Shown here: piece by piece, positions 30,499 through 54,562 of the stretch
Layout: each line of letters begins with the position of its first letter
How positions within the stretch are numbered: position 1 is the stretch's first letter
Source: an uncultured Planctomycetaceae bacterium
GTDB taxonomy: Bacteria > Planctomycetota > SZUA-567
Direction of reading: 5' to 3'
Assembly (NCBI GenBank): GCA_964457365.1
Contig: CAYWFP010000006.1
Span: 13,329 to 77,328 of the forward strand
DNA length: 64,000 bases
Notes under the pieces: generated by a model
Databases searched by the model: none
Told to the model about the DNA's origin: nothing
Seen by the model: the letters and a program-made list of their open reading frames with translations, nothing else
Made by a program: the position numbers and the translations under genes

Positions 30499-37755
<7,257 letters not shown>

Positions 37756-38989: not shown

Positions 38990-41900
38990 TTAAAAGCGAA
39001 TCAGACTTCGCCCGCAGGTCCAGGCCAGAACCCGATTCGACATAACTCTAAAATCGACAACATATTCCAAGTCCGACCCGGCGGGTTTCACCCGGCAACG
39101 CGAATCGGAATCCACGGCAACGACCTCCCATGCGTCGGGCTTTCCCTGCAGGCCCAGTCCGCTCGCCTTGGCCGCGGCCTCCTTGGCGCACCAGTACTTC
39201 AACAGCGTTTCGGGCTCCCGAGCAGGAAGGCGGTCCAGTTCCGCTTGCGTAAATGACCGTTGCAGCCACGGCCCTACAGCCCGTGCGCCGGGAAGCTCGA
39301 GATCCACACCTGCCGGCCTGCCGTTTTCGCTGCACGCCGCCGCGGCCACGTCCTCCGCGTGGGTGATGGAGACCGTCGGCGGACGGGGCAGATGCGCGCA
39401 CCGGACCACCGGCATGCCGTTCTCGTCGTTGTCGATCCCCAGGTCCGCCGGCCCCAGCAGCATCCCGTGGTGCGCCCACGCCCACGCCGTCACCGCCTCC
39501 TTGGCGGCGATGCGCCCGAGGAGGTAGCTTATCCGGCGCGGGCTTCCGGCCGGGAAGGCGTAGTAGCGCTCCCGCTCGGCTTCGTCGAGGTAGACGTGCG
39601 CGAGTACGCGCTGCCAGATGCCCCAGCTCGATTCCAGGAACGTTTTGCTCAAGACATTCACCATACGGATGAGCAAGCCGGGCGCCTGCGTCTCGACCGG
39701 AACGCTTATGCGGGCCTCGAGTTGCGGGAAATTGATCCGTTCGATAAACCCCGGCGGACAGTCGAAGAGCCGTTTACGTCCCCCTTCGACCAGCATGATC
39801 GTTTGTTCGTCCGGGGTGATGAACTCGTAGCGCGTGTGGACGATGCCGTTCTCGATCCGCAGCGCGCCGCGGCAGAGTACCTGCGTCTCCGGCGCAACCC
39901 GGGCGAAGATAGTGATGCGCTCCATGGCGAAGGGGAAGACGCCGAAGCTGTGCCGCTCGCTCCGCTCGACCAGCCAGTAGGCGACCAACTGCCCCGCGCA
40001 GTCCAGGAGCAGCGGCTCAAGCGCCAGCGTCGGTGCCGGATGGTCCGGGAAATACCGGCGCGGATCGCTCTCGCGGATTACCGCCTCGTAGCCGTGGGCG
40101 TCCATCCAGTTCACCTTCCGGATACCCTGCAGCGACGGGCCGTGAAACAGGAAATAGCGGTAGAACTCGTCGACCGTGACGCGGGGAGGCCGGGCCTCGG
40201 CATCGGGCCGGATCTCCGAAGAAGGCGCGGCGGGGTATTCGTCGGCGCAGACCACCACGGCCTCCAACACCAGTGCGCGCGCTTCCTCGTCGGCGAGTTC
40301 ATACACGCGCACGCGCGCGGCGCGCTCCGCCGGCTCGGATCCGATCCGCTCGGCCTGCAGTTCGATGCCGACGGCACCACGATCAAGTGCGAGCCAGCGC
40401 ATGCCGCGCACCTCGTCCAGCCGGATCGCCATGCCGCCAAGAAGCGCTACCGCCGCCTCGGCGACCGCTTCGATGCTGAACGCCATCGGCTGCACCGGCA
40501 GGCCCGACTCTGGCGCCGTCTGCGCGACCTTCCCCGCGCGGCCGAAACAGTGATCCAGCAGGTACCGGTCCTCTCCGGCGGCCAGCCGCCGGCGCGCGAC
40601 CAGGCGCGTCGGGCTCCGCTCGACCACCTCGCCCAGGAGCGGAGCAGAAGGTTTTGTCCCCGTCGGGCTCGGCGCCGTCTCCGGCGGCCGAACGCGTGGT
40701 GACGCGGCGGGCTGTTGCAAGCGTGCGACAAGCAGGGCGTGCAGGCGCGCCTGGCTTTCGAGAAACCGGTTCATCAACTCGAAATGGGCCTTGACGATCT
40801 CCGCGCGGTCGACCGGCACCCGCTGCGGCAACGCGGGTGGCGGGGGCGCGGATGGGATCGCGGTCGTCGGAGAAGGCGCGTGTTCGTCCGCGGATGCCGG
40901 CCTCACCGGCGGCAACAACTCGTCCAGGCTTGCAGGCTCCGGCGAGCCTTCGGCCAAGAGCGCTTCGGCGTTCCACGGCACGCCGGCGACGTACAACTGC
41001 CCGAGTCCGTCCAGAAAGCTCTGCAGGCTCGGCTCCGCGCCCATGGCCAGCGCCGTGTGCGGCCGTCCGCGCAGGATGTCGCCGACGAACGGAGTGAGCA
41101 GGTTTCCCGGTCCGACTTCGAGAAAGGTGCGCACGCCGTCCTCGTGGAGCCGTTCGACGGTCTCGCGGAAGCGCACCGTGTGGACGAGCTGGTTGCGGAT
41201 CGTCTCGAGCATGGCTTCGGATTCTTCCGGCATGGGTCCCACGGCATAACAACTGAAGAGCGGAATCGTCCCGCCCCGCAGACGCAACCGCGCGAAGAAC
41301 CCGTCGTAACGCTGGAGCCGCTTCGCGAAGAGCGGCGTATGGAACGGCAGATCGAAAGGGATCGGCAGGCAGATCGCGCCCGCCTCCTGCAGACGGTCGA
41401 TGGCCCGCTCCATCGCCTCGTCATCGCCGAAGAGGACGAGTTGGTGCGGCGCGTTGTCCATGGTCAGAAAGACGCGCTCGCCATCGACCACGTCGGCGAG
41501 GCAGTCGCGGTCGCGTACACTCACGGCCACACTGCGCCCGCGCGGGACCGTCTCGCTCCGCTCCACCTCGCGGGCGAAATCCGCCAGTTCCCGCAAGAGC
41601 TGCAGGTATTCGCCGCGTTCGATACGGCTGCTTCCGCTGGCGACGAGGGCGATGTTCTCCCCGTTACTGTGACCGAGCATCGCGTCGACGGGAACGCCAA
41701 GCCGCCCGAGCAGATCGCAGAGCCCCAGCGTGCCGACGACCACCGCCGCGCCGCCGGCGTTGATGTCCAGAAGAAAACGCTTCACCGCTTCGCCTTGTTC
41801 TCCCGTCAATACGGCCGGCGGATGGAGCAGCGTACTGACCGCGTTCTCCTGCGGATGCGCGAAGGTCGCGTCGAGCTGGTCGAACGCGGACCTTATCGAC

Positions 41901-43339
41901 GGGAACGCCAGCGCCAGGTCGTGCATCATGCCGGTCTGCTGGGCGCCCTGTCCGGGCATCAGCCAGGCGACCGTTCCCCGCTCGGTTTCGACCGCGACGC
42001 CGTACCATATGCCGTACCGCGTCCGCAGTCTTCCCTTCTCCGGCAGCAGCGGTCGAATCCGCCGAAGCTTCTGCAGCAATTCCAGGCTGTCGCTCGCGCG
42101 GACCGCCAGCCGCGCCGGGCCGTCCGCCTCTGGCAGCAACGCCTGCGCCAACGACTCCGCCGAGACGTCCGGTCGGGTTTCGAGCCGGCGGATCAAATCG
42201 TCGATCCGTGCGAGCATGGCTTGCGGCGACGGCGCGCCGAGGAGAAACAACGTTTCCGTCCGGATCGGCGTGCGCGGAGCGCGCCCGCTCGCGGCTTCGC
42301 ACAACCGCCAATGACAGGCCATTCCGCCGGGTTCGACGGAGGTGATGCCCACGCGTCGGAGATCGGCCTCTGCGCGGAACCACGCGCGGGCGCTCGTGTC
42401 GACCCGCATGTTCGCGTCTGTCGTCGTCGCGCCGGAGAGCGGCGGCAGCAGTTTCTCCCGGAGCGCCAGGCAGCCGCAGAACAGCGCGCCCAATCCCGCC
42501 GCCGCGCCGGCGTGGTCGAAGACGTTCTTCTCGCATCCCAACGTCACCACCGGCAGCGCGAGTCCCGGCGGCAGGCGCGATTCGAGGGACTCCAGTTCCC
42601 GTCGGTCCTGAGACGGGCCGCCGCCGCTCAGGAGTTGCCATGACGGCGGCAGCGGTTCATTCGGATAGGCCGTCTCCAGCAACGCGTCCAACGTGTCTCG
42701 CGAAGCATGCGGCCAGGCGAGCTCCGGCTCGTGTACGCGAATGATCGCTTCGAGTACGGCGTAGGCCTTCGTATTCTCCGTCTCGCGGCTCAGCACCAGG
42801 CAGACCCCGCCGGCCATGGGAAGGATGCCCTCTGCGCCATCGGCGAGTGCGCGCATGGGCGTATTGAGCAGCAAGCCGCTTCCGCGCAGGTGCAGCAGCA
42901 GCGCTTCGGGGATCATGCGCTGCACCGCCAGGAGGGCCACGGTCGGGGACGCCTCCAGCATCCTTCCCGCCACGTTCAGCAATGCGCCCGAATCCGAGAG
43001 CGGCGCGTGAAAGCGGAGGTACGGGTAGTCCTTCGCCAGCGAAGCGGCCCAATCCGGCGGGGCGACGACATCGACAGCCGGCGCGACACCGCCGGGCCGC
43101 GCCAGAATTCGGGCGTACTCCGTCTCTGTCGCGTACAGCAGCGGGATCTTCGTCTCGGGCTCGACTCCCGCGTCGCGCAACGCTCCACGTACGAGCGCGG
43201 CCGGGTCGGGAATCGGCGCGCGCGTCGCTTCGGGAGGACGCCCCGGACTGCGCAGCAGCGCCCAGATATCCTCGAGCGTATTGTACTGCGCCAGGTGGGC
43301 GCTCACGCCGATGATCGCGAGTGGTCCGCTCGGATTCAT
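38990..43339 (-). CDS. Polyketide synthase subunit: degenerate KS-like (KS0), AT, PKS-type DH, C-terminal Sfp-type phosphopantetheinyl transferase (1449 aa)
   Basis: KS0: LAIIGVSAHL... with no active-site Cys. AT: GHSNGE. DH: YFLFHGPSLQGI and LLDCAGQL (DxxxQ). PPTase: GVDLE and WCAKEAAAKASGLG, plus the first-half LGRIAAKEAV. Confidence 0.85.
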   Translation of the reverse strand: MNPSGPLAIIGVSAHLAQYNTLEDIWALLRSPGRPPEATRAPIPDPAALVRGALRDAGVEPETKIPLLYATETEYARILARPGGVAPAVDVVAPPDWAASLAKDYPYLRFHAPLSDSGALLNVAGRMLEASPTVALLAVQRMIPEALLLHLRGSGLLLNTPMRALADGAEGILPMAGGVCLVLSRETENTKAYAVLEAIIRVHEPELAWPHASRDTLDALLETAYPNEPLPPSWQLLSGGGPSQDRRELESLESRLPPGLALPVVTLGCEKNVFDHAGAAAGLGALFCGCLALREKLLPPLSGATTTDANMRVDTSARAWFRAEADLRRVGITSVEPGGMACHWRLCEAASGRAPRTPIRTETLFLLGAPSPQAMLARIDDLIRRLETRPDVSAESLAQALLPEADGPARLAVRASDSLELLQKLRRIRPLLPEKGRLRTRYGIWYGVAVETERGTVAWLMPGQGAQQTGMMHDLALAFPSIRSAFDQLDATFAHPQENAVSTLLHPPAVLTGEQGEAVKRFLLDINAGGAAVVVGTLGLCDLLGRLGVPVDAMLGHSNGENIALVASGSSRIERGEYLQLLRELADFAREVERSETVPRGRSVAVSVRDRDCLADVVDGERVFLTMDNAPHQLVLFGDDEAMERAIDRLQEAGAICLPIPFDLPFHTPLFAKRLQRYDGFFARLRLRGGTIPLFSCYAVGPMPEESEAMLETIRNQLVHTVRFRETVERLHEDGVRTFLEVGPGNLLTPFVGDILRGRPHTALAMGAEPSLQSFLDGLGQLYVAGVPWNAEALLAEGSPEPASLDELLPPVRPASADEHAPSPTTAIPSAPPPPALPQRVPVDRAEIVKAHFELMNRFLESQARLHALLVARLQQPAASPRVRPPETAPSPTGTKPSAPLLGEVVERSPTRLVARRRLAAGEDRYLLDHCFGRAGKVAQTAPESGLPVQPMAFSIEAVAEAAVALLGGMAIRLDEVRGMRWLALDRGAVGIELQAERIGSEPAERAARVRVYELADEEARALVLEAVVVCADEYPAAPSSEIRPDAEARPPRVTVDEFYRYFLFHGPSLQGIRKVNWMDAHGYEAVIRESDPRRYFPDHPAPTLALEPLLLDCAGQLVAYWLVERSERHSFGVFPFAMERITIFARVAPETQVLCRGALRIENGIVHTRYEFITPDEQTIMLVEGGRKRLFDCPPGFIERINFPQLEARISVPVETQAPGLLIRMVNVLSKTFLESSWGIWQRVLAHVYLDEAERERYYAFPAGSPRRISYLLGRIAAKEAVTAWAWAHHGMLLGPADLGIDNDENGMPVVRCAHLPRPPTVSITHAEDVAAAACSENGRPAGVDLELPGARAVGPWLQRSFTQAELDRLPAREPETLLKYWCAKEAAAKASGLGLQGKPDAWEVVAVDSDSRCRVKPAGSDLEYVVDFRVMSNRVLAWTCGRSLIRF

Positions 43340-43348: not shown

Positions 43349-44020
43349 CTACGCCTTCTCGATCCGCAGTTCGAATCCGAGTGAAGCCAGACCTTCTTCG
43401 GGCGAATAGATTTTGGCGTGGTCGGCGATGCCGGCCTCCTCGACAAACGCCTGCACTTCACCGGGCGTGAACTTGCCGTCGAGGACGCTGTTCTCGACGC
43501 CGGCTTTCGCGCGCATTCTGTTGAATGATGCCAGCGCCTCGGGATGCGGATCGCGCCGTACGTCGTGAATGACGGCGACCCCGCCCGGGGCGAGGACGCG
43601 GTCGATCTCCCGGAACGCCCGCACCGGATCGGGCCAGTGGTGAATCGTGCTGCGGCTGACGACCAGGTGCGCCGAACCGTCGCGGCACGGCAGTGCGTGC
43701 ACGTCGCCGGCCAGGAGGTGCACGCGGTCGGCGCAGTCGTCCTCGACCACCGCGCGTTTCGCCTCGCCGAGCATGTCCTGGTAATAATCCAGGCCGATCA
43801 ATCGCATTCGCGACAGATCCGGCATCGCCGCCAGCTTGAGCAGGACCTGCGCCGTGCCGGCGCCCACGTCCAGGAGCGCTGCGTCCGCGGGCTGCCGCCG
43901 GTATTCCCGCCCGATGCGCTCGATGAAGATCCTGTCGAACGGCTCGATATAATCCTGGGTGAATTTGTCGTACAGCTCCGCCGAGTAGCGCACGCGGATG
44001 CCTTGCTCTTCCCCGTTCAT
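43349..44020 (-). CDS. Class I SAM-dependent methyltransferase
   Basis: Start MNGEEQG overlaps the upstream stop (ATGA). LLDVGAGTAQV glycine-rich SAM motif, and acidic loop VAVIHDVRRD. Confidence 0.8.
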   Translation of the reverse strand: MNGEEQGIRVRYSAELYDKFTQDYIEPFDRIFIERIGREYRRQPADAALLDVGAGTAQVLLKLAAMPDLSRMRLIGLDYYQDMLGEAKRAVVEDDCADRVHLLAGDVHALPCRDGSAHLVVSRSTIHHWPDPVRAFREIDRVLAPGGVAVIHDVRRDPHPEALASFNRMRAKAGVENSVLDGKFTPGEVQAFVEEAGIADHAKIYSPEEGLASLGFELRIEKA

Positions 44021-45435
44021 GACGTTCCTTTCCCGCTTCGGTGCAGCGCGGAGAGAGAACGCGCGGCCGCCTCGACGCTCTCGGTCGCCGGAACTCCCCG
44101 CCCGCGCAGATAGGCCAGGCCCGCGCGAACCGTCGACTCCGCGCCCCAGACGAGGTGAACCTGCGGCTGCGGATAGGTCGCGTGCAGCGCGACGAGTCCG
44201 GCGAGTTGTTTTTCCAGGTAGCCGTCCCAATACCAGTTGCACGTGACCAGGGCGTCGACGCCGGGATTCTCCAGCACCGCGCGCATGCACGCGTCGACGC
44301 GCGCCGGATCGGCCATCACCGCGGGGGTGATGTCGAGCGGGTTGGCGTGGCTGGCGAAGGGCGGGATCAGCGCGCGGATGTTCTCGCGCGCCGCGTCTTC
44401 AAGCGGCGGAAGTGTCAGACCGTGCACGACGAGCCGGTCGACCAGGTTCACTCCGACGCCGCCGAGAGTGGTGACGACGCCGACACCACTGCCGCGCAGC
44501 GGTCGCCCCGTGGCCATGACGGCGAGGGCCTCGACCAACTCGGATACGGTCTCGACGAGGATGACGCCGCGTTCAAGCAGCAGTTCCCGCAGCGCCGCCG
44601 CCTCGGCCGCATCGGCGCCGGTATGACGTCTGCACGCCTTCACGCCCGTGTCGCTGCGCCCGCCTTTGAGGAGGACGATCGGCTTGCCGACTTTCCACAG
44701 CGCGCTCAGTCCCGCGTCAAGCGCATTCGGGTCGGATGTGTTCTCCAGGTATGCACCCACGCGTGGCGTCTGCGGATCCTCCGCGTAATACGCCAGAAGT
44801 TCGCCGAAAGTCAGGTCGGCCTCGTTGCCGCTGCTGACCATGCGGCTATAGCCGACGCCGCGCGCGCCCAGTCCCTCGAAGACGCGGGCGCAGATGCCGC
44901 CGCTCTGGCCGACGAAGCTGAAGCTCTGCGGATAACTGAGGTGCGATTCGTCCAGCGGCTGCAGCAGGAGGAAGTTCGCCATCAATTTCGACGGCGTCGA
45001 GAGCACGCCCATGCAGTTGGGACCACAGAGAAGCAGACCGAACTCGCGTGCCGTTTGGCGCAGATTCTCTTCCAGCGCTTCGCCCGCCTCGCCCGCCTCG
45101 CCGTACCCGCTGGTCAGGACGATTACGGCTTTGACACCGGCCTGTGCGCAGTCCGCGAGGGTATTCGGCACCAGCGGCGGCGGCAGGGCGATGATCGCGA
45201 GTTCCGGCGATTCGGGAAGATCCGCGAGCGACTTGTAGCAGCGGCGGTTCAGGATCTCGTCGTACTTGGGATTGACCGGGTAGATCCCGCCCGGAAAGCC
45301 CGCGCGTTTCAACGCCAGCACCGGCTGGCCGCTGGGCTTGAAGGGATCCGCGGAGGCGCCGACGACCGCCACGGCATTGGGCGCGAAGAGCGCCCGGAGA
45401 GCCGTCCGGCGATGAGCGGAGAGGACGGCGCTCAT
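44017..45435 (-). CDS. Acyl-CoA synthetase (NDP-forming) alpha-subunit-like protein (CoA-binding plus succinyl-CoA-synthetase-like domains), no beta/ATP-grasp partner
   Basis: AVVGASADPFKPSG CoA-binding Rossmann start and the ACD-alpha architecture (about 473 aa). ATGA overlaps on both sides. Confidence 0.7.
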   Translation of the reverse strand: MSAVLSAHRRTALRALFAPNAVAVVGASADPFKPSGQPVLALKRAGFPGGIYPVNPKYDEILNRRCYKSLADLPESPELAIIALPPPLVPNTLADCAQAGVKAVIVLTSGYGEAGEAGEALEENLRQTAREFGLLLCGPNCMGVLSTPSKLMANFLLLQPLDESHLSYPQSFSFVGQSGGICARVFEGLGARGVGYSRMVSSGNEADLTFGELLAYYAEDPQTPRVGAYLENTSDPNALDAGLSALWKVGKPIVLLKGGRSDTGVKACRRHTGADAAEAAALRELLLERGVILVETVSELVEALAVMATGRPLRGSGVGVVTTLGGVGVNLVDRLVVHGLTLPPLEDAARENIRALIPPFASHANPLDITPAVMADPARVDACMRAVLENPGVDALVTCNWYWDGYLEKQLAGLVALHATYPQPQVHLVWGAESTVRAGLAYLRGRGVPATESVEAAARSLSALHRSGKGTS

Positions 45436-46046
45436 GAGGTGGCGAGCAGTCGTCGGCCGGCTTCGAAGGCGCCCCGGTTCAACTCGCGCAGCTTGGGCTT
45501 GAGGACCAGGGGCAATGCTTCCAGATAACGCCCGGCCGGCAGATCCAGCGCGCCGCACGCGGCCAACGCGCCGAGCATGACCACGTTGGTCGCCTTGGCG
45601 TTGCCGGTCTCCTGCGCGGCCTTGACCGCCGGCAGCAGCTTCGTCGCGGGAGCGAGTGTCGAGAGCGCTTCGGCGATAGCGTCCACCGCAGGATAGGTCG
45701 CCTTGCCGCTGAGGACGGCGATGGGGTAGATCGGCCGGTCGCTGGCGAGAACCGTGGTCTCCGGATTGCCGTAGTCGGCCAGCACGCGCAACGTCTCCAG
45801 GGGTTCGAGCCCGACGATGACGTTGGCCTTGCCGCGCGGGATGAGCGGCCCCGTGCGCAGCGTCGGATGCAGGCGGACGTGGCTCATCACCGCGCCGCCG
45901 CGTTGACTGGCGCCGAAGGTCTCGCCGACGCTGACCTGGTAACCCGCCGCCACGGCCGCGGTCGCCAGCAGGCGCGAGGCGAGGACGTTGCCCTGGCCGC
46001 CGACGCCGGTGATGATGACGTTGAGGGGATCCGTAAGCGCGATCAT
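45432..46046 (-). CDS. iorB: Indolepyruvate:ferredoxin oxidoreductase beta subunit
   Basis: IITGVGGQGNVLASRLL motif, 204 aa; its ATG overlaps the iorA stop (ATGA). Confidence 0.8.
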   Translation of the reverse strand: MIALTDPLNVIITGVGGQGNVLASRLLATAAVAAGYQVSVGETFGASQRGGAVMSHVRLHPTLRTGPLIPRGKANVIVGLEPLETLRVLADYGNPETTVLASDRPIYPIAVLSGKATYPAVDAIAEALSTLAPATKLLPAVKAAQETGNAKATNVVMLGALAACGALDLPAGRYLEALPLVLKPKLRELNRGAFEAGRRLLATS

Positions 46047-47965
46047 GCGCCGCCCTCCGGCACGAGCTCGGCTGCGGCGATGGCGCCGGCCGGGCAGAGT
46101 TGCGCGCAGACGCCGCAGCCGTTGCATAGCGTCTCGTCGATCCGCGCCTTGTTCGTCGCGTCGTCCCAGACGGTACCGGGGCAGGCGAATTTTCGCGAGC
46201 AGAGCCCGCAGCCGGCGCAGCGTTCGGGATCGACGCGCAGAACGGTCTTGGTTTTCTCGCGCGCGGCTTGCAACGCGCACGGTTGCCGCAGGATCAGGAC
46301 GCGCGGTCCGGTCTGCTGCAACAGGTCGTAGACGGCCGTCTCGGTCGCCTGCAGGTCGAACGGATCGCGCACGGTGACCGGCAGTCCGATGCCTTCAAGG
46401 AGCGACTCCATCCCCACCCGCGCGGCGTCGACACCGCTGGCGCTGGTCGGCAATCCCGGGTGCGGCTGGTGTCCGGTCATGGCGGTGGTGTGGTTATCCA
46501 GAACGACCAGCAGGACGTCGGCGTTGAGGTGTTTGGCCTCGACGAAGGCCGGGAGGCCCGCGTGGTAGAACGTGCTGTCGCCCAGCACCGCCACCACCGG
46601 ACGCTTGAAATCGAACCGCCCGAGCCGTCCGAGTCCCGTGGCCATGCCGACGCCCGCGCCCATGCAATGTACCGAGCGCAGCACGCCGTAGCCTGTCTTA
46701 CCGAGCGCGAGGGTATAACAGCCGATGTCGCCCAAAACGATAGCGCCGCGCCCGTCTCGATCGACCGCACGGTACATGGCCCAGAAGCCGGCCCGGTGAC
46801 CGCAGCCGGCGCAGAAGGTATGTTCGCGCTTGGGCATCTCCTGATCGAGCAGCTTCTCCGCCGCGGCGGTATCGGTGAATCGTCTCGTCGCGCGCTCGCC
46901 GCCGAAGACGCTCTGGATCGCGTTTATCACCAGATCCGGATCCATCTCGCCCACGCCCGGGCCGTGCGGGCCCGCGACCGTGCCGTCCATTTTGCCGCGG
47001 AAGCGGGTCATGCCGATTTCGCTCATATGCAGCGCCGTCCATGCCATGACGCTCTCTTCGACGAATCCGGCGGTCTCTTCGACAAAGACCACCTCCGCCG
47101 CCGGCGCGAGCGCCTTCGCGAGCAATTCGTCCGGCAGGGGGAAGCTTGTCCCGAGCCGCAGCAGGCCGACCTCGCCGCTGAGGCCCAGCAGGCGGATCGC
47201 CTCGGCCGCGTGCAGGGCACAGACGCCGGTGGCGATGACCAGCTTCTTCACCCCTTCGGGGCCGGCGTAAACGTTGAACGGCGACTGCTCGTGCAGTCCC
47301 TTGACCGCCGCGAGCCGTTTCTTTACAGCGGCGTGAAACATGCCCAGCGTCAGAAAGCGCTCCTCCGGGCCGATATCGGCCTTCCGCTCGCGCGGCGGCA
47401 ACTCGCCCAGGGTGACGTTCCCGGAGCCATGGCAGATGCGCGTGGTGAGGCGCACCGCCACCGGCAGGCCGATTTTTTCGGAAACGTCGAAAGCCGCGCG
47501 CGTCATCTCCTTGGCGTCGTGCACGGTGGCGGCTTCCCAGACGGGGATTTCGGCGGCCTTGAGAAACGCGCGGCAGTCCTCCTCCTTGACGCCCGAATGC
47601 GCGCCGCAGTCGTCGCCGACGACGATGACCATGCCGGCCTTGACGCCGGTGTAGGCCAGGGCGGTCAGAAAGTCGAGCGTGACGTTGAGGCCGTCGGGCT
47701 TCATCGAGACGAGCGCGCGCAAACCCGCCAGACTCGCGCCGGCAGCCGCCTCCATCGCCACGATCTCGTTGATCGACCATTCCGCGACGATGCCCGCCTC
47801 TTCCGCAACCGCGGCGAGCGAGCCCATGATTTCCACCGTCGGCGAGCCCGGATACGACGCGGCCATCTGCGCGGCGCCTTCGAGCACGCCGCGCGCCGCC
47901 GCCTCGTTGCCGTTGAGGAGAAGCGCGCCCCCGGGGTCGTCGCGCAGGATCAAGTGGTCGCTCAT
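46043..47965 (-). CDS. iorA: Indolepyruvate:ferredoxin oxidoreductase alpha subunit (TPP-binding, two 4Fe-4S ferredoxin motifs)
   Basis: Start MSDHLILRDD at 47965 (ATGA overlap with upstream gene). TPP motif GDIGCYTLA...GDSTFYHAG. Ferredoxin motifs CAGCGLCSRKFACP and CNGCGVCAQLCP. Confidence 0.85.
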   Translation of the reverse strand: MSDHLILRDDPGGALLLNGNEAAARGVLEGAAQMAASYPGSPTVEIMGSLAAVAEEAGIVAEWSINEIVAMEAAAGASLAGLRALVSMKPDGLNVTLDFLTALAYTGVKAGMVIVVGDDCGAHSGVKEEDCRAFLKAAEIPVWEAATVHDAKEMTRAAFDVSEKIGLPVAVRLTTRICHGSGNVTLGELPPRERKADIGPEERFLTLGMFHAAVKKRLAAVKGLHEQSPFNVYAGPEGVKKLVIATGVCALHAAEAIRLLGLSGEVGLLRLGTSFPLPDELLAKALAPAAEVVFVEETAGFVEESVMAWTALHMSEIGMTRFRGKMDGTVAGPHGPGVGEMDPDLVINAIQSVFGGERATRRFTDTAAAEKLLDQEMPKREHTFCAGCGHRAGFWAMYRAVDRDGRGAIVLGDIGCYTLALGKTGYGVLRSVHCMGAGVGMATGLGRLGRFDFKRPVVAVLGDSTFYHAGLPAFVEAKHLNADVLLVVLDNHTTAMTGHQPHPGLPTSASGVDAARVGMESLLEGIGLPVTVRDPFDLQATETAVYDLLQQTGPRVLILRQPCALQAAREKTKTVLRVDPERCAGCGLCSRKFACPGTVWDDATNKARIDETLCNGCGVCAQLCPAGAIAAAELVPEGGA

Positions 47966-49152
47966 GCGTTCACCTCGTCGATGTTTTTCAGGAGCGCGCG
48001 CAGGTTCTCTTCCGTGTCCTGCCATCCGCGGCTCTCGCTCATCCTCTTGACCTTGGCCATCAGGGCCTCGGCCTGTTCGTTCGTGAGTTCCGCACCCAGC
48101 TCCTTCGCGCGCGCGAAAAACGCGGCCCGACCGCTGTGCTTGCCCAGGACCAGGCGCACGCTTCCCGCGCCGACGAGCTCGGGCGCGTACGGCAGGTACG
48201 TGGTCGGATTTTTCAGCAAGCCGTCCTGGTGGATGCCGGCCTCGGTGGCGAAGATGTTGGCGCCGGCGACGGGCTTGGTCGGCGAGAGCGGCACGCCGGC
48301 CTCTTCGCTGACCAGGCGCACGAGCGGGACGAGCTCGTTCAGTTTTATCGGCACGCTCCGGCCGAGGCGTTCGCGCTGCAGATGCGCCGCCAGCGCCACT
48401 TCTTCCAAGGCGGCGTTGCCGGCGCGCTCGCCGAGACCGCCGACGGTGCATTGCACGATCGCCGCGCCCGCGCGCACGCCCGCGAGGCTGTTGGCCACCG
48501 CCATCCCCAGGTCGTTATGGAAATGCACGGCCAGGTACGCCTTGGCCAGTTCCGGAAGTTCCGTCCACAAGGTCTTGAGATTCTCGATCACCTGGTCCGG
48601 CGCGAGAACGCCGACGGTGTCGGTATAGCCGATGGTGGTCGCGCCGGCCTGCAAGGCCGCGCGACAGACCTCGACCAGATACGGCATCTCGGTCCGGCTG
48701 GCATCCTCCGCGCCGAAGGCGACCACGCCGAAGCGCTCCCGGGCGTAGCCGACGCTGGCGCGGACGCGGTCGATCAGTTCGCTCTCGCTCAAGCGTAGCT
48801 TCTGCTCGCGGTGCACGGTGCTCGTGGCGATGAAGAGGCTGACGCCGCAGCGGCGACGGTCGATGCCCTCGAAGGCGGTGCAGGCCGCGTCGATGTCGCG
48901 CTCCACGGCGCGGCAGAGCGCGGTGACCATCGTCTTCGGCAGCGCCTGTGCGACCGCCCGCACGGATTCCACCTCGCCCGGACCGCTGGCGGGAAAGCCC
49001 GCCTCGATGGAGAAGATGCCGGCCTCGGCCAGTGCCACGGCGATGCGCACCTTCTGCTCGGCGGTCAACGCCACGCCCGGCATCTGCTCGCCGTCGCGGA
49101 GCGTCGTGTCGCTGAAGACGATAGGCGGTGCATCGGTCTGCTGCTGTGTCAT
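47962..49152 (-). CDS. LeuA/NifV/CimA-family 2-oxoacid:acetyl-CoA condensing enzyme (DRE-TIM metallolyase, short form without regulatory domain)
   Basis: FSDTTLRDGEQ N-terminal motif and the HFHNDLG metal-binding motif; 396 aa. First gene of the minus-strand operon. Confidence 0.8.
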   Translation of the reverse strand: MTQQQTDAPPIVFSDTTLRDGEQMPGVALTAEQKVRIAVALAEAGIFSIEAGFPASGPGEVESVRAVAQALPKTMVTALCRAVERDIDAACTAFEGIDRRRCGVSLFIATSTVHREQKLRLSESELIDRVRASVGYARERFGVVAFGAEDASRTEMPYLVEVCRAALQAGATTIGYTDTVGVLAPDQVIENLKTLWTELPELAKAYLAVHFHNDLGMAVANSLAGVRAGAAIVQCTVGGLGERAGNAALEEVALAAHLQRERLGRSVPIKLNELVPLVRLVSEEAGVPLSPTKPVAGANIFATEAGIHQDGLLKNPTTYLPYAPELVGAGSVRLVLGKHSGRAAFFARAKELGAELTNEQAEALMAKVKRMSESRGWQDTEENLRALLKNIDEVNA

Positions 49153-49267: not shown

Positions 49268-50995
49268 ATGCTCTTTCTAGACTTCCCACGGATTGCGGGC
49301 TCGATTGGCGGGCAGGTCACTTACTGGGTAATCCCGGAGATTTTTTTCATGCCTCCTCTGGCCCGCTCGGCTTATCTGGAATTGCTGCGCGAGGAGATCG
49401 GCGACCGGCTCTGGCCGTTGATGCTGCTCTCGGCCTTCTCGGGAATCGCCAGCGGCGTGATCGTGACATTGATTACCTCGATCACCGAGACCGATATCCA
49501 CGGTTGGGCCATGCTCCGCTTCCTGCTGCTCTTCGTCATGGTCGCGCTGGCGTCGCTGGAGTTGTCGCGCCAGGCGTTGCTGCGGGTGAACCGGGAGATC
49601 GAGCGCCTCGTCCACCGCATCCGCACGCGCGTGGCCGACCGTATCCGCCACGCGGAACTCCGAGACCTGGAGCGGCTGGACCTGGCGCGCATCTACGTCA
49701 CCACCGCCGAGAGCACCGAGAACCTGACCAAGGCGTCAATGCCGGTCTTCAAGAGCATCGGCGCGCTGGTGCTCATCGCCTACTGCCTGGTGCAGATCGG
49801 CTTGACAAGCACGGTGGCGCTGGCGCTGGTCCTGGGCAGCTTTCTCGGCGCGAGCCTCCTGTACCTGTATATCGAGAAATACGCCTACGAATACATCCGC
49901 GAAGCGTACGTGGCGGAGTACCGGTTCTTCAAACTCATGCGTGAACTCGCTCGCGGCTTCAAGGAACTCCGGCTCAACCGCGCCCGCGACGCGGACATTC
50001 ATGCGGACCTCGAATCGCAGGCCGACCGGGTCGAGGCGCGGAAAATGCGCGCGCACCGTCTCGTCGCCTGGCTCTACAGCTACACCGATCTCTTCTTCTT
50101 CCTCACACTGGGGCTGCTGATCTTTCTGTTGCCGTTGCTGCACGCCTGGACCTCGCGGCAGTTGGCCGACCTGATCGCCATCCTGCTTTTTCTCGGCGGC
50201 GGCGTGGCGCAGGTGGTGCTCAGCGTCCACCAGATCGCCCAGGCCAACGTGGCGGTGCAGCAACTGCGGGAGATGGAGACCGGGCTGCGTCAATGCGTCG
50301 TGCCGGACACCCCTCAGGGAGCGCGCCCGCTACGGGAGCTGACGTTGAAGAAGGCGGTCTTCTCCCATCGCGACGAAGAAGGCGGAGAACTATACACCGT
50401 CGGTCCGGTCTCCTTGACCATCCGCCCGGGAGAAGTGTATTTTCTCGTCGGCGGTAACGGCAGCGGCAAATCCACGTTGCTGAAGATCATCGCCGGCCTG
50501 TACGCGCCGGAGGACGGCGAGATTCTCCTCAACGGCGAGGCGGTCGTCCGCGAAAACCGGCAGGACTATCGTGAACTCGTCAGCGCCGTCTTTACCGACT
50601 TCCATCTCTTCGACCGTCTGCTGGGATGGGAGGAAACGTCGCCGGAACGGGTGAACGCGCTGCTGGAGGAGTTGGGGCTGGCGAGCAAGGTCTCGTTCGA
50701 GAACGGCGGCTTCAGCACGCTGCAGCTCAGTACCGGACAGCGCAAGCGGCTGGCGCTGGCGGTGGCGCTCCTGGAGGACCGGCCGCTCCTGCTGCTCGAC
50801 GAGGTCGCCGCGGACCAGGATCCGTACTGGCGCGAGGAGTTCTATACGCGGATCGTGCCCAAACTGAAAGCACGGGGCAAGGCCGTGGTCGTGATCGGGC
50901 ATCACGATCGGTATTTCGAGACCGGCGACATGTTGTGGCGCATGGATTACGGGGAACTGGTCGAACAGCGCCCCGCGCGCTCCACGGAGGCATGA
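49268..50995 (+). CDS. ABC half-transporter, cyclic-peptide/siderophore exporter (SyrD/YojI) family, TMD-NBD fusion
   Basis: N-terminal 6-TM domain. NBD with Walker A GGNGSGKST, the signature variant LSTGQRKRLA, and Walker B LLLLDE. An alternative start lies at 49349. Confidence 0.85.
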   Translation: MLFLDFPRIAGSIGGQVTYWVIPEIFFMPPLARSAYLELLREEIGDRLWPLMLLSAFSGIASGVIVTLITSITETDIHGWAMLRFLLLFVMVALASLELSRQALLRVNREIERLVHRIRTRVADRIRHAELRDLERLDLARIYVTTAESTENLTKASMPVFKSIGALVLIAYCLVQIGLTSTVALALVLGSFLGASLLYLYIEKYAYEYIREAYVAEYRFFKLMRELARGFKELRLNRARDADIHADLESQADRVEARKMRAHRLVAWLYSYTDLFFFLTLGLLIFLLPLLHAWTSRQLADLIAILLFLGGGVAQVVLSVHQIAQANVAVQQLREMETGLRQCVVPDTPQGARPLRELTLKKAVFSHRDEEGGELYTVGPVSLTIRPGEVYFLVGGNGSGKSTLLKIIAGLYAPEDGEILLNGEAVVRENRQDYRELVSAVFTDFHLFDRLLGWEETSPERVNALLEELGLASKVSFENGGFSTLQLSTGQRKRLALAVALLEDRPLLLLDEVAADQDPYWREEFYTRIVPKLKARGKAVVVIGHHDRYFETGDMLWRMDYGELVEQRPARSTEA

Positions 50996-52119
50996 TGAAC
51001 CGTCCGCGCGTCCTGCTCTATTGCCACAACGCCGTCGGCCTCGGCCACGTGATGCGGACGCTGCGGATCGCGCGCGCGCTGATCGGGCACGACTGCGCGG
51101 TGAAGCTGCTGACCGGGTGCCGCTGGCTCGACGGAGTCGAGACTCCTGCCGGCGTCGAGATCGACCAACTCCCAGCGGTACGCTTTGACGGCGTCCGCTT
51201 CGTCGCCGCCGAAGGCGATGGGGACGTCTTCGCGCGGCGCGGCGAGCGCATCCTGCAGGTGCTGCACGCGTGGCGGCCGCAGGTCGTTCTGGCGGATCAT
51301 CTGGCGCTCGGACTCGGCGGCGAATTGATCCCCGCGCTCCGGGACGAATCGATCCCCGCCACGTTCGTCTGGGGCGTGCGGGACATCTTCTACCATCCCG
51401 ATCGCCCGTCGCTGGCGCCGCGGCCGCCGCGCAACCCGACGATGCGCGCCGCGCTGGCCCGTTACGGCGCGAGCGTGGCCTACACCACCGCCGACTGGAT
51501 CGATCCCTTCGCCGCGATGAGCCATTATCCGCTTTCCACACGCCGGCATCACGTCGGCGTGATCGTCGGCGACGAGCCGGCGGTGAAGCCGGAGACGCCG
51601 CCGCGCATCGTCTGCCTCGCCGGCAGCGGCGGCAGCAGCGAGACGCATACGCGCCTCTGGTTCGAGGCGCTGGCAGGCATGAGCCGCGGCGTTTTTCGCA
51701 CGCGCATGGTCGTCGGCCCGTTCGGCGATCTGGAGAATACCCGCGCACGCGGCGAGGAGCTCGACGTGGAAGTGGTTCCGCAGATGCCGGCCGAAGCGGC
51801 GGTGGCCGACGCGCATGTCGTGCTCTCGCAGGCGGGGTACAACACCGCCTACGCCCTGACGCGCACGCCCTGTCCGCTGGTGTTCCTGCCGGCGGCCAAC
51901 GACGGGGCCGAACAGACGTACCGCGCCGAACGGATGCGCACGCTCGACCGGGTCTGGACGGTGGACCCGGAGAGCCCGGATGCGGTCGCGGACTTGCGTC
52001 AAGCGTTGACCGAGGCGCTGAACGCCGCTGTGGCGCCGCGGACGTTGCCGTTCGTTACCGACGGCGCGACAAATGCGGCAGCGCTGTTGACGGCGTGGGC
52101 GCGGGAGGCGACGGCATGA
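50992..52119 (+). CDS. GT-B fold glycosyltransferase (GT1/GT28-like)
   Basis: Start MMNRPRV overlaps the upstream stop (ATGA). The N-terminal RVLLYCHNAVGLGHVMRTLRIARAL is typical of the MGT/MurG-like GT-B N-domain; 375 aa. Confidence 0.7.
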   Translation: MMNRPRVLLYCHNAVGLGHVMRTLRIARALIGHDCAVKLLTGCRWLDGVETPAGVEIDQLPAVRFDGVRFVAAEGDGDVFARRGERILQVLHAWRPQVVLADHLALGLGGELIPALRDESIPATFVWGVRDIFYHPDRPSLAPRPPRNPTMRAALARYGASVAYTTADWIDPFAAMSHYPLSTRRHHVGVIVGDEPAVKPETPPRIVCLAGSGGSSETHTRLWFEALAGMSRGVFRTRMVVGPFGDLENTRARGEELDVEVVPQMPAEAAVADAHVVLSQAGYNTAYALTRTPCPLVFLPAANDGAEQTYRAERMRTLDRVWTVDPESPDAVADLRQALTEALNAAVAPRTLPFVTDGATNAAALLTAWAREATA

Positions 52120-52895
52120 AACAACTGCTGATCAACGCCGACGATCTGGGATTGAGCGCCGGAGCCTCACGCGGCATCGCGCATGCAATGACCGAGGGCG
52201 TGGTCGTCTCCTGCTCGGCCATGGTTGCCGTCCCCGGCGCGGTCGAGACCATCGCCCGTTACGCATCGTGTCTTCGCGGCCGGATCGGACTGCATCTGCA
52301 ACTGACCGCCGGCACGCCGTGCCTGCCGCCGGAAGAGGTGCCGACACTTGTCAAGGAAAACAGCGTTTTTCCACCGCACTGGCGCGAGTTGGGTCGCCCG
52401 GATCCGGACGAGATCCGCCGCGAGTGGCGCGCGCAACTGACGCGGCTGCGGGCGGCGGGCGTGGAACCGACGCACCTGGACTGTCATCACAACCTGCACC
52501 TCGATCCGCGCATCCTTCCGCTGGCGATCGAGTTGGGGCAGGAGTTGGGCGTGCGTGTGCGCAGCGGCGGGCGGGCGTTGGCGGCTTCTCTGCGCAAGGC
52601 CGGCATCGTCTGCACCGATCACTGCATCGTCGGTTGGGGGAAACGGGCGATCAGCCGCACCGATCTGGTCGAGACGGTCGATGCGGTATTCTCCACACGG
52701 CAAGCGCCGCGAACGGTCGAACTGGTCTGCCATCCAGGCGAGCTCGACGACGACCTGCGCGCACGCGCCGGCCAGGTCGAGACGCGGCCGGCGGAACTGG
52801 CGGTGTTGACCGATCCGGCAACGTCTTCGGCACTCGAGGCCGCGGGCATCGAGCTCTTGACCGCGCCGCCGACGCTCTCGGGGGAGCGATCCTGA
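52116..52895 (+). CDS. YdjC/ChbG/HpnK-family carbohydrate deacetylase
   Basis: MKQLLINADDLGLSAGASRGI start plus the THLDCHHNLH motif. ATGA overlap with the glycosyltransferase gene. Confidence 0.8.
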   Translation: MKQLLINADDLGLSAGASRGIAHAMTEGVVVSCSAMVAVPGAVETIARYASCLRGRIGLHLQLTAGTPCLPPEEVPTLVKENSVFPPHWRELGRPDPDEIRREWRAQLTRLRAAGVEPTHLDCHHNLHLDPRILPLAIELGQELGVRVRSGGRALAASLRKAGIVCTDHCIVGWGKRAISRTDLVETVDAVFSTRQAPRTVELVCHPGELDDDLRARAGQVETRPAELAVLTDPATSSALEAAGIELLTAPPTLSGERS

Positions 52896-54562
52896 TGCAT
52901 ACGCCCGAGCGCCATCCATTTCTCAAGATGCTGTACACCGAGGTCGGCCCCCATACGCTCTGGGTGATGGTCGCCTCGCTGTTCTGCGGCCTCGCCAACA
53001 GCGCGGTGGTGATCTGCATCAACAACGCCGCCAAGTCGCTGGGCCAACCACTGCGGCTGGTGATCCTCTTCGGCTCGTTTCTGCTGGCCATGCTCGTCTT
53101 CGTCATCGGACGCAATTTCGTCCTGCGCCGCAGCACCGCGTACGTGGAGCTGATGATCCGGCGCATGCGCATGCGCATGGCCGAGGAACTGCGTGTGGCC
53201 GATCCGCTGACACTCGAACAGTTGTCCGCGGGCGAGGTTTTCTCCGTGCTGACCAAGTGCACGCAACTGGTCTCGCGCTCGACGATCCCGCTCTTCCTGG
53301 CCATGACCTCGGCGGTGATGCTCGTCGGTTGTCTCGTCTACATGTGCTTTCTCTCGCTCGCGGCGGCGATCGCGACGGTGGCGGTCTTCCTCGTCTGCGC
53401 GCGTTACAACCAACTCACCCAGGTCGAGGTGGACGCGCTGCTGGAGAAGAGCATCCGCAGCGAGAACGCTTTCTTCGGCAAGCTGCAGGATCTCTTGGAC
53501 GGCATCAAGGAAGTCAAGCTCAGTCGCGCGCGGAGCAACGCCCTCTACCGCGAGGTACTGCTGCCGCTGGCCGAGGAGGCCCGGACGCATCAATACGAAG
53601 CGCGCATCCCGGTCATCGAGAACCACGTCTTCGGTCATGCATTCTTCTATATCATCGTCGCGGCGGTGCTCTTTCTGCTGCCGGCGCTGCCCGGGGGAAC
53701 GCCGCGGCTGATGGCGGAGCTGATCGCGTTGCTGCTCTTCATGCGCTCCTCGCTGGAGGAGGTTGTCGGCGCCATTCCGATTCTGGGCGAGGCGGACGTG
53801 GCCATGCGCAATCTCTTCGCGTTGCGGGACCGGCTGGCGAAGCCCGAGCCCGAGCCGAACCCGGTGCAGATCCGTCGCCTGGAGCGCATCGAGCACGTCG
53901 AGTCGGTCGCGGTGCGCGGCCTCTCCTTCCGCTACCCCAGCCCAGACGGCCGGTCGACCTTCGGCATCGGGCCGCTGGACCTGGAGGTGCGCGCCGGCGA
54001 GATCACCCTCGTTCACGGCGCCAACGGGGCGGGCAAGTCCACGCTCCTGAAGGTGCTGACCGGGCTGTACGAACCCGACGACGGCGAGATCTATCTCAAC
54101 GGCCAGCCGGTCAATCCCGGCAACCGCCGCCGGTATCGCGAGTTCTTCAGCGCCGTCTTCAGCGACTTCCACGTCTTCCGCCGGCTCTACGGTCTGGCCG
54201 ACGCCGCCGACGCCCGGGTGCTGGATCTGCTGGAGGATCTGGAACTGGCCGCACGCACCGACGTGGTCGACCGGGCCTTCACCAACGTGGACCTGAGCAC
54301 GGGGCAGCGCAAGCGACTGGCGTTCCTGGTGGCGCTGCTGGAGGAGCGGCCTGTCTGCGTCTTCGACGAGGTGGCGGCGGACCAGGATCCGGAGTTCCGC
54401 GCGCGCTTCTACCGTGAGATCCTGCCGCGGCTCAAGGCGGAAGGGAAAGCGATCCTGCTGGTCAGCCACGACAAGGACTTCTTCGACGTCGCCGACCGCA
54501 TGTACGCGATGGACTACGGCACGCTGCAATGCGAGCGTGATCGGGAGCGAAGGGGTTTTTGA
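52895..54562 (+). CDS. ABC half-transporter, SyrD/YojI-type (second copy), TMD-NBD fusion
   Basis: Start MHTPERHPF overlaps the upstream stop (TGATG). Walker A GANGAGKST, LSTGQRKRLA, Walker B VCVFDE. Paralog of 49268..50995. Confidence 0.85.
   Translation: MHTPERHPFLKMLYTEVGPHTLWVMVASLFCGLANSAVVICINNAAKSLGQPLRLVILFGSFLLAMLVFVIGRNFVLRRSTAYVELMIRRMRMRMAEELRVADPLTLEQLSAGEVFSVLTKCTQLVSRSTIPLFLAMTSAVMLVGCLVYMCFLSLAAAIATVAVFLVCARYNQLTQVEVDALLEKSIRSENAFFGKLQDLLDGIKEVKLSRARSNALYREVLLPLAEEARTHQYEARIPVIENHVFGHAFFYIIVAAVLFLLPALPGGTPRLMAELIALLLFMRSSLEEVVGAIPILGEADVAMRNLFALRDRLAKPEPEPNPVQIRRLERIEHVESVAVRGLSFRYPSPDGRSTFGIGPLDLEVRAGEITLVHGANGAGKSTLLKVLTGLYEPDDGEIYLNGQPVNPGNRRRYREFFSAVFSDFHVFRRLYGLADAADARVLDLLEDLELAARTDVVDRAFTNVDLSTGQRKRLAFLVALLEERPVCVFDEVAADQDPEFRARFYREILPRLKAEGKAILLVSHDKDFFDVADRMYAMDYGTLQCERDRERRGF

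Follow-up and report, generated by a model that had tools for sequence, protein, structure and literature searches.

Clusters for "secondary lipids" built on synthases that resemble polyunsaturated fatty acid (PUFA) synthases, here called Pfa-like, are found in Deltaproteobacteria and Planctomycetes, and their products are unknown (PMC3098273). The sequence analysed here is a stretch of 64,000 nucleotides (the window) from the genome of an uncultured Planctomycetaceae bacterium (GTDB lineage Bacteria; Planctomycetota; SZUA-567; assembly GCA_964457365.1, contig CAYWFP010000006.1, positions 13,329 to 77,328), which contains a Pfa-like glycolipid cluster headed by five genes: a LeuA-like condensing enzyme, the IorA and IorB subunits of an enzyme of the indolepyruvate:ferredoxin oxidoreductase (IOR) family, the alpha subunit of an NDP-forming acyl-CoA synthetase (ACD-alpha), and an S-adenosylmethionine (SAM)-dependent methyltransferase. 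The cluster itself is of a known kind, and the new element is its undescribed 2-oxoacid accessory module: terms for LeuA-like proteins, IorAB and ACD are absent from PMC3098273 and PMC13291983, no described Pfa-like type is reported with these genes, and nothing was found in the literature that connects Pfa-like or polyketide synthase (PKS) lipid clusters with an IOR, an ACD or a LeuA homologue. The five genes are probably the supplier of an unusual building block for the lipid, because parts of the set recur beside the same synthase in other uncultured bacteria.

The enzymes of the module can be compared with several described systems. In peptide-fermenting archaea, 2-oxoacid:ferredoxin oxidoreductases (OFORs) turn 2-oxoacids into acyl-CoA and ACD acts on the products (PMC3942289). 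The IOR-ACD pathway of Pyrococcus and Thermococcus and the bacterial iorAB loci have the same two subunits, with thiamine pyrophosphate (TPP) and iron-sulfur (FeS) domains, followed by an ACD alpha part with its catalytic His, whereas the subunits of the window score below the equivalog cut-offs and belong to a biosynthetic rather than a catabolic operon, and its ACD-alpha clade comes from fused alpha-beta proteins with the beta part absent. LeuA has been engineered (H97A, S139G, N167A or P169A, together with the feedback-insensitive G462D) to elongate larger 2-keto acids in combination with leuBCD, yielding precursors of C6-C8 alcohols (PMC3370425). The same four positions are enlarged in the LeuA-like protein, and feedback inhibition, which the engineered enzyme loses through G462D, would be lost here with the entire regulatory domain. 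The plant methylthioalkylmalate (MAM) synthase 6E1J likewise has small residues at the equivalents of S139 and N167. MAM synthase and the cyanobacterial HphA, the benzylmalate synthase of homophenylalanine biosynthesis, are recruited LeuA homologues of natural origin. The LeuA-like protein represents a natural bacterial family and, unlike these engineered, MAM and HphA systems, is encoded beside a methyltransferase and a lipid synthase and with no clustered isomerase or dehydrogenase.

The region 49152..43349, read as the reverse complement of 43300-49300, is filled by the five genes:

49152..47962, minus strand, LeuA-like condensing enzyme, 396 amino acids (aa)
47965..46043, minus strand, IorA, 640 aa
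46046..45432, minus strand, IorB, 204 aa
45435..44017, minus strand, ACD-alpha, 472 aa
44020..43349, minus strand, SAM-dependent methyltransferase, 223 aa

All four junctions read ATGA, the start codon of one gene overlapping the TGA stop of the gene before it by 4 bp. The stop codon of the methyltransferase gene is TAG, and 9 nt further on, at 43339, a 1449-aa synthase gene begins with ATG. The public gene call for an identical metagenomic contig (SRR7048224; locus L001) gives products of the same lengths (396, 640, 204, 472, 223 and 1449 aa). Pfam and NCBIfam matches, the junction sequences and this independent gene call bear out the gene identities, the coupling and the four ATGA overlaps described in a first-pass annotation of the sequence, which was also right that no LeuCD or LeuB partner and no ACD beta subunit is present in the window: LeuCD (aconitase-type) and LeuB (isocitrate/isopropylmalate dehydrogenase-type) domains had no match among the open reading frames scanned in the window. 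The overlaps denote a tight operon and are nothing unusual in themselves, since the neighbouring divergent operon also has three overlapping junctions (ATGA at 50992-50995, ATGA at 52116-52119, TGATG at 52893-52897). The five genes are the translationally coupled head of a Pfa-like glycolipid operon, and are a composite of a LeuA-like/methyltransferase pair and an IorA-IorB-ACD-alpha trio.

The composite nature of the set emerged from related loci, found by look-up of LeuA-like homologues and by scanning GTDB species representatives with an IorA alignment. Besides the window (L001), they are arranged as follows, where KS, AT, ACP, KR and ER stand for ketosynthase, acyltransferase, acyl carrier protein, ketoreductase and enoylreductase, and MAG for metagenome-assembled genome:

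L006/L003/L088, Thermodesulfobacteriota MAG: LeuA-like, 101-aa protein, flippase, outer-membrane efflux protein, membrane fusion protein, RND transporter, IorA, IorB, ACD-alpha; a 2436-aa ER-KS-AT-ACP-KR homologue is divergent from this string
L014, second Thermodesulfobacteriota MAG: LeuA-like, the same export genes as L006, IorA, IorB, GT28 glycosyltransferase, radical SAM protein; no ACD-alpha; the methyltransferase is divergent from this string
L012 and L002, two contigs of one sample abutting inside IorA: LeuA-like, IorA, IorB, ACD-alpha, 1311-aa TIM-barrel/phosphohistidine/PPDK_N protein
L094, JGI metagenome: 1474-aa synthase, YdjC, 2479-aa synthase, TauD, LeuA-like, methyltransferase, glycosyltransferases and deacetylase, ACP, GT_PLOD, GT28; no IorAB
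L095/L096, ENA metagenomes: GT_PLOD, 2362-aa synthase, radical SAM protein, TauD, LeuA-like, methyltransferase; no IorAB
L177/L178, JGI and ENA metagenomes, type II system: ACP, AMP-ligase, further genes, KS, KR, KS, MaoC dehydratase, LeuA-like, methyltransferase
L179, Logan contig: ACP and 1426-aa synthase, divergent from LeuA-like

Thus, the LeuA-like gene adjoins an acyl-chain synthase, either homologous to the megasynthases of the window or a type II KS/KR/dehydratase set, in seven loci (L001, L006/L003/L088, L014, L094, L095, L177 and L179); an eighth (L012/L002) has LeuA-like, IorAB and ACD-alpha genes, its contigs being too short for a synthase to be seen. Orthologues of the methyltransferase (43-51% identical) adjoin the LeuA-like gene in L094, L095, L177 and L014; in L094 the two genes are direct neighbours, and in L095 (by 4 bp) and L177 they overlap. 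IorA-IorB accompanies the LeuA-like gene in four loci, three of which have ACD-alpha after IorB, and five export genes separate LeuA-like from IorAB in L006 and L014. Among the 75 other IorAB loci of GTDB species representatives, none has a LeuA-like gene within 10 kb and none has a PKS beside IorAB; what usually adjoins IorAB there is a gene for an FrhB-like protein, an aminotransferase or a fused ACD alpha-beta. A whole family of acyl-chain-synthase clusters is therefore marked by the LeuA-like gene, in most cases paired with the methyltransferase gene, and IorA-IorB(-ACD-alpha) is an optional module, inserted in the window between the two. This recurrence backs the functional link to the synthase that had been proposed from the window alone; the treatment of the five genes as one set holds for their coupling and fails for their evolution.

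Three features of the related loci are recorded here for their own sake. The 101-aa protein encoded after LeuA-like in the Thermodesulfobacteriota clusters (L006:11369-11674, L014:1932-2237) is 69% identical between the two MAGs, has no Pfam match and, by tblastn, no homologue in the window. The type II system at L177:1712-11870 comprises an ACP, an AMP-ligase, an agmatinase-like protein, two KSs, a KR and a MaoC dehydratase with the LeuA-like/methyltransferase pair; the matches of its ligase and KS proteins to AmcH (2-oxoglutaryl-ACP ligase) and AmcF of cispentacin biosynthesis were below cut-off and under those to generic acyl-CoA ligase and FabF, and were not used. A TauD-family Fe(II)/2-oxoglutarate dioxygenase is encoded immediately upstream of LeuA-like at L094:9008-9976 and L095:9016-9984, and may be either the equivalent of IorAB in aerobes or a tailoring enzyme unconnected with it.

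The LeuA-like protein consists of a catalytic TIM barrel and subdomain II (Pfam HMGL-like, 5.9e-78; HCS_D2, 4.4e-21), and throughout the family the catalytic and metal-binding residues (R19, D20, H210, H212 and the GKHSGR motif) do not vary. Its best NCBIfam matches are bacterial LeuA models, over model positions ~4-381 of 514 only, and the best of these reaches 404.8 bits, short of the equivalog cut-off of 697; the nifV model scores 347 bits (cut-off 463). The closest PDB entries are 3RMJ, the catalytic domain of Neisseria isopropylmalate synthase (IPMS; 309 bits), and then 6E1J. The C-terminal, leucine-binding regulatory domain (LeuA_dimer) is absent: the protein ends at about residue 390 of E. 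coli LeuA, so that residues ~390-523 are missing. In an alignment with LeuA of E. coli MG1655, H97, S139, N167 and P169 are replaced by S, G, G and T. The first three positions are S/N, G/A and G in the cluster-associated homologues, and S/N, G/A (S in three homologues) and G/A in the family overall. By these residues the natural LeuA-like protein looks like the engineered enzyme, "LeuA*", and its pocket is enlarged, as would be expected of an extender of a non-standard 2-oxoacid, a role in line with the 2-oxoacid extension suggested in the first-pass annotation.

Five positions that govern selectivity in HphA, homocitrate synthase (HCS) and IPMS (PMC12961565, Table 1) were compared:

LeuA-like protein of the window: Leu / Ala / Gly / Gly / Gln
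IPMS (PMC12961565): Leu / Glu / Ser / Asn / Glu
HphA (PMC12961565): Ala73 / Asp157 / Ala159 / Met186 / Ser242
HCS (PMC12961565): His / Arg / Thr / Ser / His

None of the five residues agrees with HphA and one agrees with IPMS; judged by its pocket, the predicted enzyme is none of IPMS, HphA and HCS. The position of the key HphA residue Ala73 is Leu, as in IPMS (His in HCS), and from this IPMS-like Leu the substrate is probably aliphatic rather than aromatic or acidic. An aryl starter, which had been named as an example, has no support from this Leu, nor from IorA and IorB, which fall below the equivalog cut-offs of their families. Other identities were considered and rejected: HphA on the pocket residues (0/5) and the lack of a clustered isomerase or dehydrogenase in the eight loci; HCS/NifV, since the His and Arg that serve the distal carboxylate of 2-oxoglutarate are Leu and Ala, and the nifV score is low; and CimA on pocket residues and profile scores. 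A metagenome scan with a six-sequence LeuA-like alignment returned mostly generic LeuA, at most 50% identical and none with cluster neighbours; the patterns used in it, DTTLRDGE and HFHND, were too general.

IorA consists of POR_N and TPP_enzyme_C domains and a C-terminal 2x[4Fe-4S] domain (Pfam), and matches the IOR alpha-subunit model TIGR03336 at 3.7e-162 and 540.7 bits, under the cut-off of 650.9. IorB matches PF01558 (POR, gamma-like) at 1.9e-29 and TIGR03334 at 154.6 bits, under the cut-off of 205.8. By Pfam and NCBIfam the two proteins together have the two-subunit IOR architecture, and alignment to IorA of L003 shows that the TPP-binding and FeS motifs are kept (Cys motifs, GDSTFYH...LDN). 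"IOR" is used here as a family label only, a name that gives no certain substrate. IorA of the window is 70-72% identical to that of L012/L002, 58% to that of L003 and at most 53% to those of the 75 other loci; a neighbour-joining tree groups the four cluster-type sequences in an exclusive clade, and the LeuA-like and IorA trees show the same pairing (window with L012, L003 with L014). A ferredoxin-dependent step, which the first-pass annotation considered unusual in a lipid cluster, is expected rather than odd, because two of the other IorAB-bearing clusters belong to Thermodesulfobacteriota MAGs; further, the IorAB-less L094 and L095 carry the O2-dependent TauD-family gene instead.

The closest ordinary iorAB loci (Desulfotomaculia and others) differ from the cluster type in having a conserved gene for a protein of 365-397 aa directly upstream of iorA (L015:8883-9980, with equivalents in L016, L018, L020, L021, L024-L026 and L035), which was FrhB/FdhB-like in the three scanned (L015, L020 and L024). 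This suggests a dedicated electron-transfer partner that is not present with cluster-type IorAB.

ACD-alpha has CoA_binding_2, Succ_CoA_lig and Ligase_CoA_2 domains (Pfam), with no ATP-grasp_5 domain (the ACD beta part, bearing the second His and the nucleotide site) in the protein itself, in the scanned open reading frames of the window, or in L002 or L003. The phosphohistidine pair His271-Thr272, the motifs GPNC, QSG, SxGN and YLE, and K251 are invariant among the three IorAB-linked copies and canonical ACDs. Among 5.8 billion protein clusters only two homologues exceed 41% identity, both encoded directly after IorAB; beyond these, similarity is greatest to fused alpha-beta proteins of 711-729 aa, and the three IorAB-linked copies stop exactly where the beta part would start. 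The beta part thus appears to have been lost from this lineage. The alpha and beta genes of Pyrococcus furiosus ACD are unlinked, five alpha subunits sharing two beta subunits, and the alpha subunit sets the specificity for the acid (PMC3942289). Because of this precedent an "orphan" alpha subunit need not be partnerless, and with the catalytic His kept here the missing beta gene does not imply the changed function (CoA-transferase or loading component) once supposed for it. The protein could be a ligase with its beta subunit encoded elsewhere, or by itself an acyl-CoA/acyl-phosphate transacylase.

Directly after the ACD-alpha homologue, L002:2585-6520 encodes the 1311-aa protein, in which a xylose-isomerase-like TIM barrel is joined to a phosphohistidine swivel domain and a PPDK_N ATP-grasp domain. 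This fusion is similar to phosphoenolpyruvate synthase, rifampin phosphotransferase and PigC/RedH, and might be a source of the nucleotide and phosphohistidine function missing from a beta-less ACD-alpha. A stand-alone AP_endonuc_2 gene is found near the ACD-alpha gene of L003.

Tentatively, the module is best read as recursive keto-acid elongation followed by conversion through IorAB to a non-acetate, probably aliphatic, acyl-CoA primer for the synthase. Starting from the gene structure, domains, catalytic residues, pocket substitutions and recurrence with the synthase, we infer a substrate, a direction for IOR, the use of housekeeping LeuCD and LeuB, and priming of the synthase, as follows. 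The LeuA-like enzyme would condense acetyl-CoA with an aliphatic 2-oxoacid larger than 2-oxoisovalerate, and housekeeping LeuCD and LeuB, encoded elsewhere, would complete each +1 round, possibly recursively. IorAB would then decarboxylate the elongated 2-oxoacid oxidatively to a branched or medium-chain acyl-CoA, with reduction of ferredoxin, and the iterative synthase would be primed with this acyl-CoA rather than with a starter derived from acetate or malonate. ACD-alpha might act on this acyl group at its CoA/phosphate site, either converting free acid and acyl-CoA into each other with a beta subunit encoded elsewhere or working alone as an acyl-CoA/acyl-phosphate transacylase; this would be the least certain step. 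The methyltransferase would be a tailoring enzyme.

Several observations weigh against this scheme. The direction of the IOR reaction is not fixed by sequence, and the cluster-type IorA clade is weakly separated, with distances of 0.41-0.43 within it and 0.40-0.47 outside and with no support values. The enlarged pocket is a trait of the protein family and not an adaptation to the cluster, because many planctomycete homologues of ~400 aa, among them L007 and L008, share it outside any cluster. IorAB is not essential to the cluster scaffold, since the clusters of L094, L095 and L177 occur without it, and ACD-alpha has no necessary role in the scheme. Dedicated homologation clusters such as hphABCD usually carry LeuCD/LeuB-type genes, and none of the eight loci has them, an absence that is not fatal to elongation because engineered LeuA* works with wild-type LeuBCD. 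No dedicated loading domain is present in the synthase: the N-termini of the two megasynthases, searched for a loading domain or a hidden ATP-grasp, showed nothing but a degenerate KS and an NMO-like region. Both ATs of the synthase keep the Arg of malonyl-type enzymes. PUFA-type synthases start from malonyl-CoA (PMC13291983). Of the earlier proposal of a non-acetate starter, the precursor module is strengthened by the recurrence, and the starter itself we can still only infer because of the missing loading domain and the malonyl-type ATs.

The absence of LeuCD and LeuB from all eight loci is turned to advantage if the pathway runs the other way, an explanation that is doubtful on balance and is the strongest of the rivals. 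IorAB, using reduced ferredoxin, would reductively carboxylate an acyl-CoA, provided by ACD (alpha with a beta encoded elsewhere) through activation of a carboxylic acid or released by the synthase, to a 2-oxoacid, and the LeuA-like enzyme would add acetyl-CoA to give a 2-substituted malate as the end product, for use as head group, acceptor or unusual primer, possibly methyl-esterified by the methyltransferase. Each step is encoded, and the constancy of LeuA-like and methyltransferase beside a varying 2-oxoacid supplier, IorAB(-ACD-alpha) or the TauD protein of L094 and L095, would be explained. Anaerobes assimilate aryl and branched acids by reductive carboxylation with OFORs. The large hydrophobic pocket could fit a long alkyl group, the catalytic His of ACD-alpha is kept, and OFORs are reversible, the reaction in which succinyl-CoA is reductively carboxylated being cited in PMC11304471. 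However, activation of the acid requires an ATP-grasp beta subunit, which is absent from all three ACD-alpha loci and seemingly lost; the part given to TauD is an ad hoc assumption; the closest, weak relatives of the methyltransferase are sugar O-methyltransferases and not carboxyl methyltransferases; and a literature search for bacterial alkylmalate lipids yielded nothing. To our knowledge no OFOR acts on long-chain acyl-CoA, and we know of no bacterial alkylmalate lipid. The long-chain version, in which acyl-CoA released by the synthase would pass through IorAB and the LeuA-like enzyme to a 2-alkylmalate that the methyltransferase and glycosyltransferases would decorate, is quite improbable.

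Two independent functions are also conceivable, if unlikely. IorAB, with ACD-alpha, would turn an ordinary amino-acid-derived 2-oxoacid straight into an acyl-CoA starter, skipping homologation, which amounts to the starter proposal of the first-pass annotation minus LeuA, and the LeuA-like/methyltransferase pair would do something else that is essential to the cluster family, for example decoration with a small hydroxy-dicarboxylate. The pair does occur without IorAB in L094, L095 and L177, the export genes part LeuA-like from IorAB in L006 and L014, and the trio of the window looks inserted into the pair. Against such independence, LeuA-like and IorA are translationally coupled in the window and adjacent in L012, both enzymes use 2-oxoacids, their trees pair the same loci, and no PKS accompanies the 75 other IorAB loci; the missing loading domain also counts against this model. 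Last, it is very improbable that IorAB-ACD-alpha serves ordinary catabolism (from 2-oxoacid through acyl-CoA to acid, with ATP made by a beta subunit encoded elsewhere), is placed in the operon by chance or for co-regulation and has no part in the lipid: the normal order of IorAB before a fused ACD alpha-beta (L027) and the classical peptide-fermentation pathway with its unlinked alpha and beta genes (PMC3942289) speak for it, but the trio, or IorAB without ACD-alpha, accompanies LeuA-like in four loci of differing gene order, lies in the window inside a translationally coupled biosynthetic operon, and includes an extremely rare ACD-alpha clade that is always beside these IorAB genes.

If the elongation and priming scheme is true, a feedback-free, enlarged-pocket LeuA would be naturally coupled to a ferredoxin-dependent 2-oxoacid oxidoreductase and feed a lipid megasynthase, the same "+1" keto-acid elongation having been built by metabolic engineers through mutagenesis. 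It would also define a recurring family of glycolipid clusters, marked by LeuA-like and methyltransferase genes, in uncultured anaerobes and their aerobic relatives, of which no description was found in the literature; it would offer natural enzymes for the production of medium-chain or branched acyl-CoA, and a test case for the function of a beta-less ACD alpha subunit. Reverse flow would instead imply new chemistry of lipid head groups and, in its long-chain version, a new class of glycolipids based on alkylmalate, a substrate class new to OFORs and a new role for beta-less ACD-alpha, with the TauD-family oxygenase standing in for IorAB in the aerobic relatives.

Downstream of the five genes, the minus-strand string continues with the synthase, and a second operon diverges from the LeuA-like gene (DH, dehydratase; PPTase, phosphopantetheinyl transferase):

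38990..43339, minus strand, 1449-aa megasynthase with degenerate KS, AT, PS-DH and PPTase domains (Pfam)
38600..38911, minus strand, stand-alone ACP, 103 aa (PP-binding, 7.4e-5)
37851..38585, minus strand, GT_PLOD-like glycosyltransferase, 244 aa (PF25342, 3.4e-11)
30499..37755, minus strand, 2418-aa megasynthase with ER (NMO), KS, malonyl-type AT, ACP and KR domains (Pfam)
29685..30488, minus strand, FabG-like short-chain dehydrogenase/reductase, 267 aa (adh_short_C2, 3.1e-57), last gene of the string
49268-50995, plus strand, ABC transporter (Pfam), first gene of the divergent operon 49268..54562
50992-52119, plus strand, GT28-like glycosyltransferase (Pfam; tblastn match to the L014 GT28)
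52116-52895, plus strand, YdjC-like deacetylase (Pfam; tblastn match to the L094 YdjC)
52895-54562, plus strand, second ABC transporter (Pfam), last gene of the divergent operon

The cluster is thus of the PUFA-synthase-like "secondary lipid" type in the sense of PMC3098273, equipped for glycosylation and export. The Pfa-like domain set is complete: KS, malonyl-type AT, ACP, KR, FabA/PS-type DH, NMO-type ER and PPTase. Pfa-like and heterocyst-glycolipid clusters carry the same set on a few giant proteins, with glycosyltransferases, deacetylases and exporters alongside; the fusions of the window are their own, one ER-KS-AT-ACP-KR protein and one with a degenerate KS, AT, DH and PPTase. Pfa-like types also have tandem ACPs and a chain length factor (CLF), whereas the window has one active KS only and two ACPs, one integrated and one stand-alone, and neither a CLF (as a KS-CLF pair) nor tandem ACPs, as in PfaA/PfaC, were detected in its synthase proteins.

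The 1449-aa protein looks like a fusion of PfaB with the C-terminal part of PfaC and with PfaE. Its N-terminal ~350 residues (41960-43339, minus strand) are the degenerate KS, which has no DTACSS-type motif or active-site Cys and matches a KS in the PDB at E = 5.5e-4 only; the remnants, an N-terminal motif and a DH-containing trace of GSxKSNxGH, are reminiscent of the KS-like part of PfaB. The AT has GHSNG and an Arg 25 residues past the Ser. Homologues of 1426-1474 aa are encoded in L179 and L094. A scan of genome collections with the single 1449-aa query gave no relative, and a homology search with it found only the distant, partial P0247 (34% identity over 29% of the query), encoded in a related PKS cluster (L009) that lacks LeuA and IorAB. 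The 2418-aa protein resembles PfaD fused to PfaA, has DAACASS in its KS and GHSYG, an Arg 25 residues past the Ser, and GAFHS in its AT, and is 42-45% identical to the 2436-aa (L006) and 2479-aa (L094) proteins. The 103-aa ACP has homologues in L009 and L094, and the GT_PLOD-like protein is 49-53% identical to the products of genes in L006, L094 and L095.

The methyltransferase is a class I SAM-dependent enzyme (Methyltransf_11, 4.1e-21, and Methyltransf_25; Pfam), and Pfam, NCBIfam, a PDB sequence search and a four-sequence profile brought no assignment to a family. Its best PDB matches, all weak, are 3DLC, the D-glucose O-methyltransferase 6UV6 and the sugar O-methyltransferase RebM 3BUS. 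It shares the class I SAM fold with BioC, the malonyl-ACP O-methyltransferase of BioC/BioH-type carboxyl masking (score 46 against a cut-off of 185; 5e-12), DVU_1556 (59.5 against 155), UbiE/MenG (weak matches) and RebM, and all scores are far under the family cut-offs. A role as an alpha-keto-acid C-methyltransferase was considered and has no support, the enzymes considered for comparison not being among the PDB matches.

Scans of the region for promoters and terminators gave results at chance level, with 11 terminator-like sites between 29.5 and 49.4 kb against 11.6 expected from shuffled sequence and no terminator signal above this. A sigma-70-like match at 10 of 12 positions lies on the minus strand at 38961-38988, between the stop of the 1449-aa synthase and the ACP gene, and is a possible internal promoter for the part of the string comprising ACP, glycosyltransferase and 2418-aa synthase. 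No riboswitch, leader or other RNA family was detected when the whole window was compared with Rfam. The proteins of the window are all singletons at 90% identity in an exact-sequence cluster look-up. The G+C content is ~68% around the five-gene locus; along the window it falls from about 0.66-0.70 to 0.555-0.585 in the last 8 kb (56001-64000), which may have a different origin or a different gene content. Unusual domain combinations elsewhere in the window include a 606-aa protein (20347-22167, minus strand) in which DUF116 is fused to a polyprenyl synthetase domain, and, at 14290-18541 on the plus strand, a fusion of an MFS transporter with HEAT repeats (743 aa) and one of pentapeptide repeats with an ion-channel domain (352 aa).

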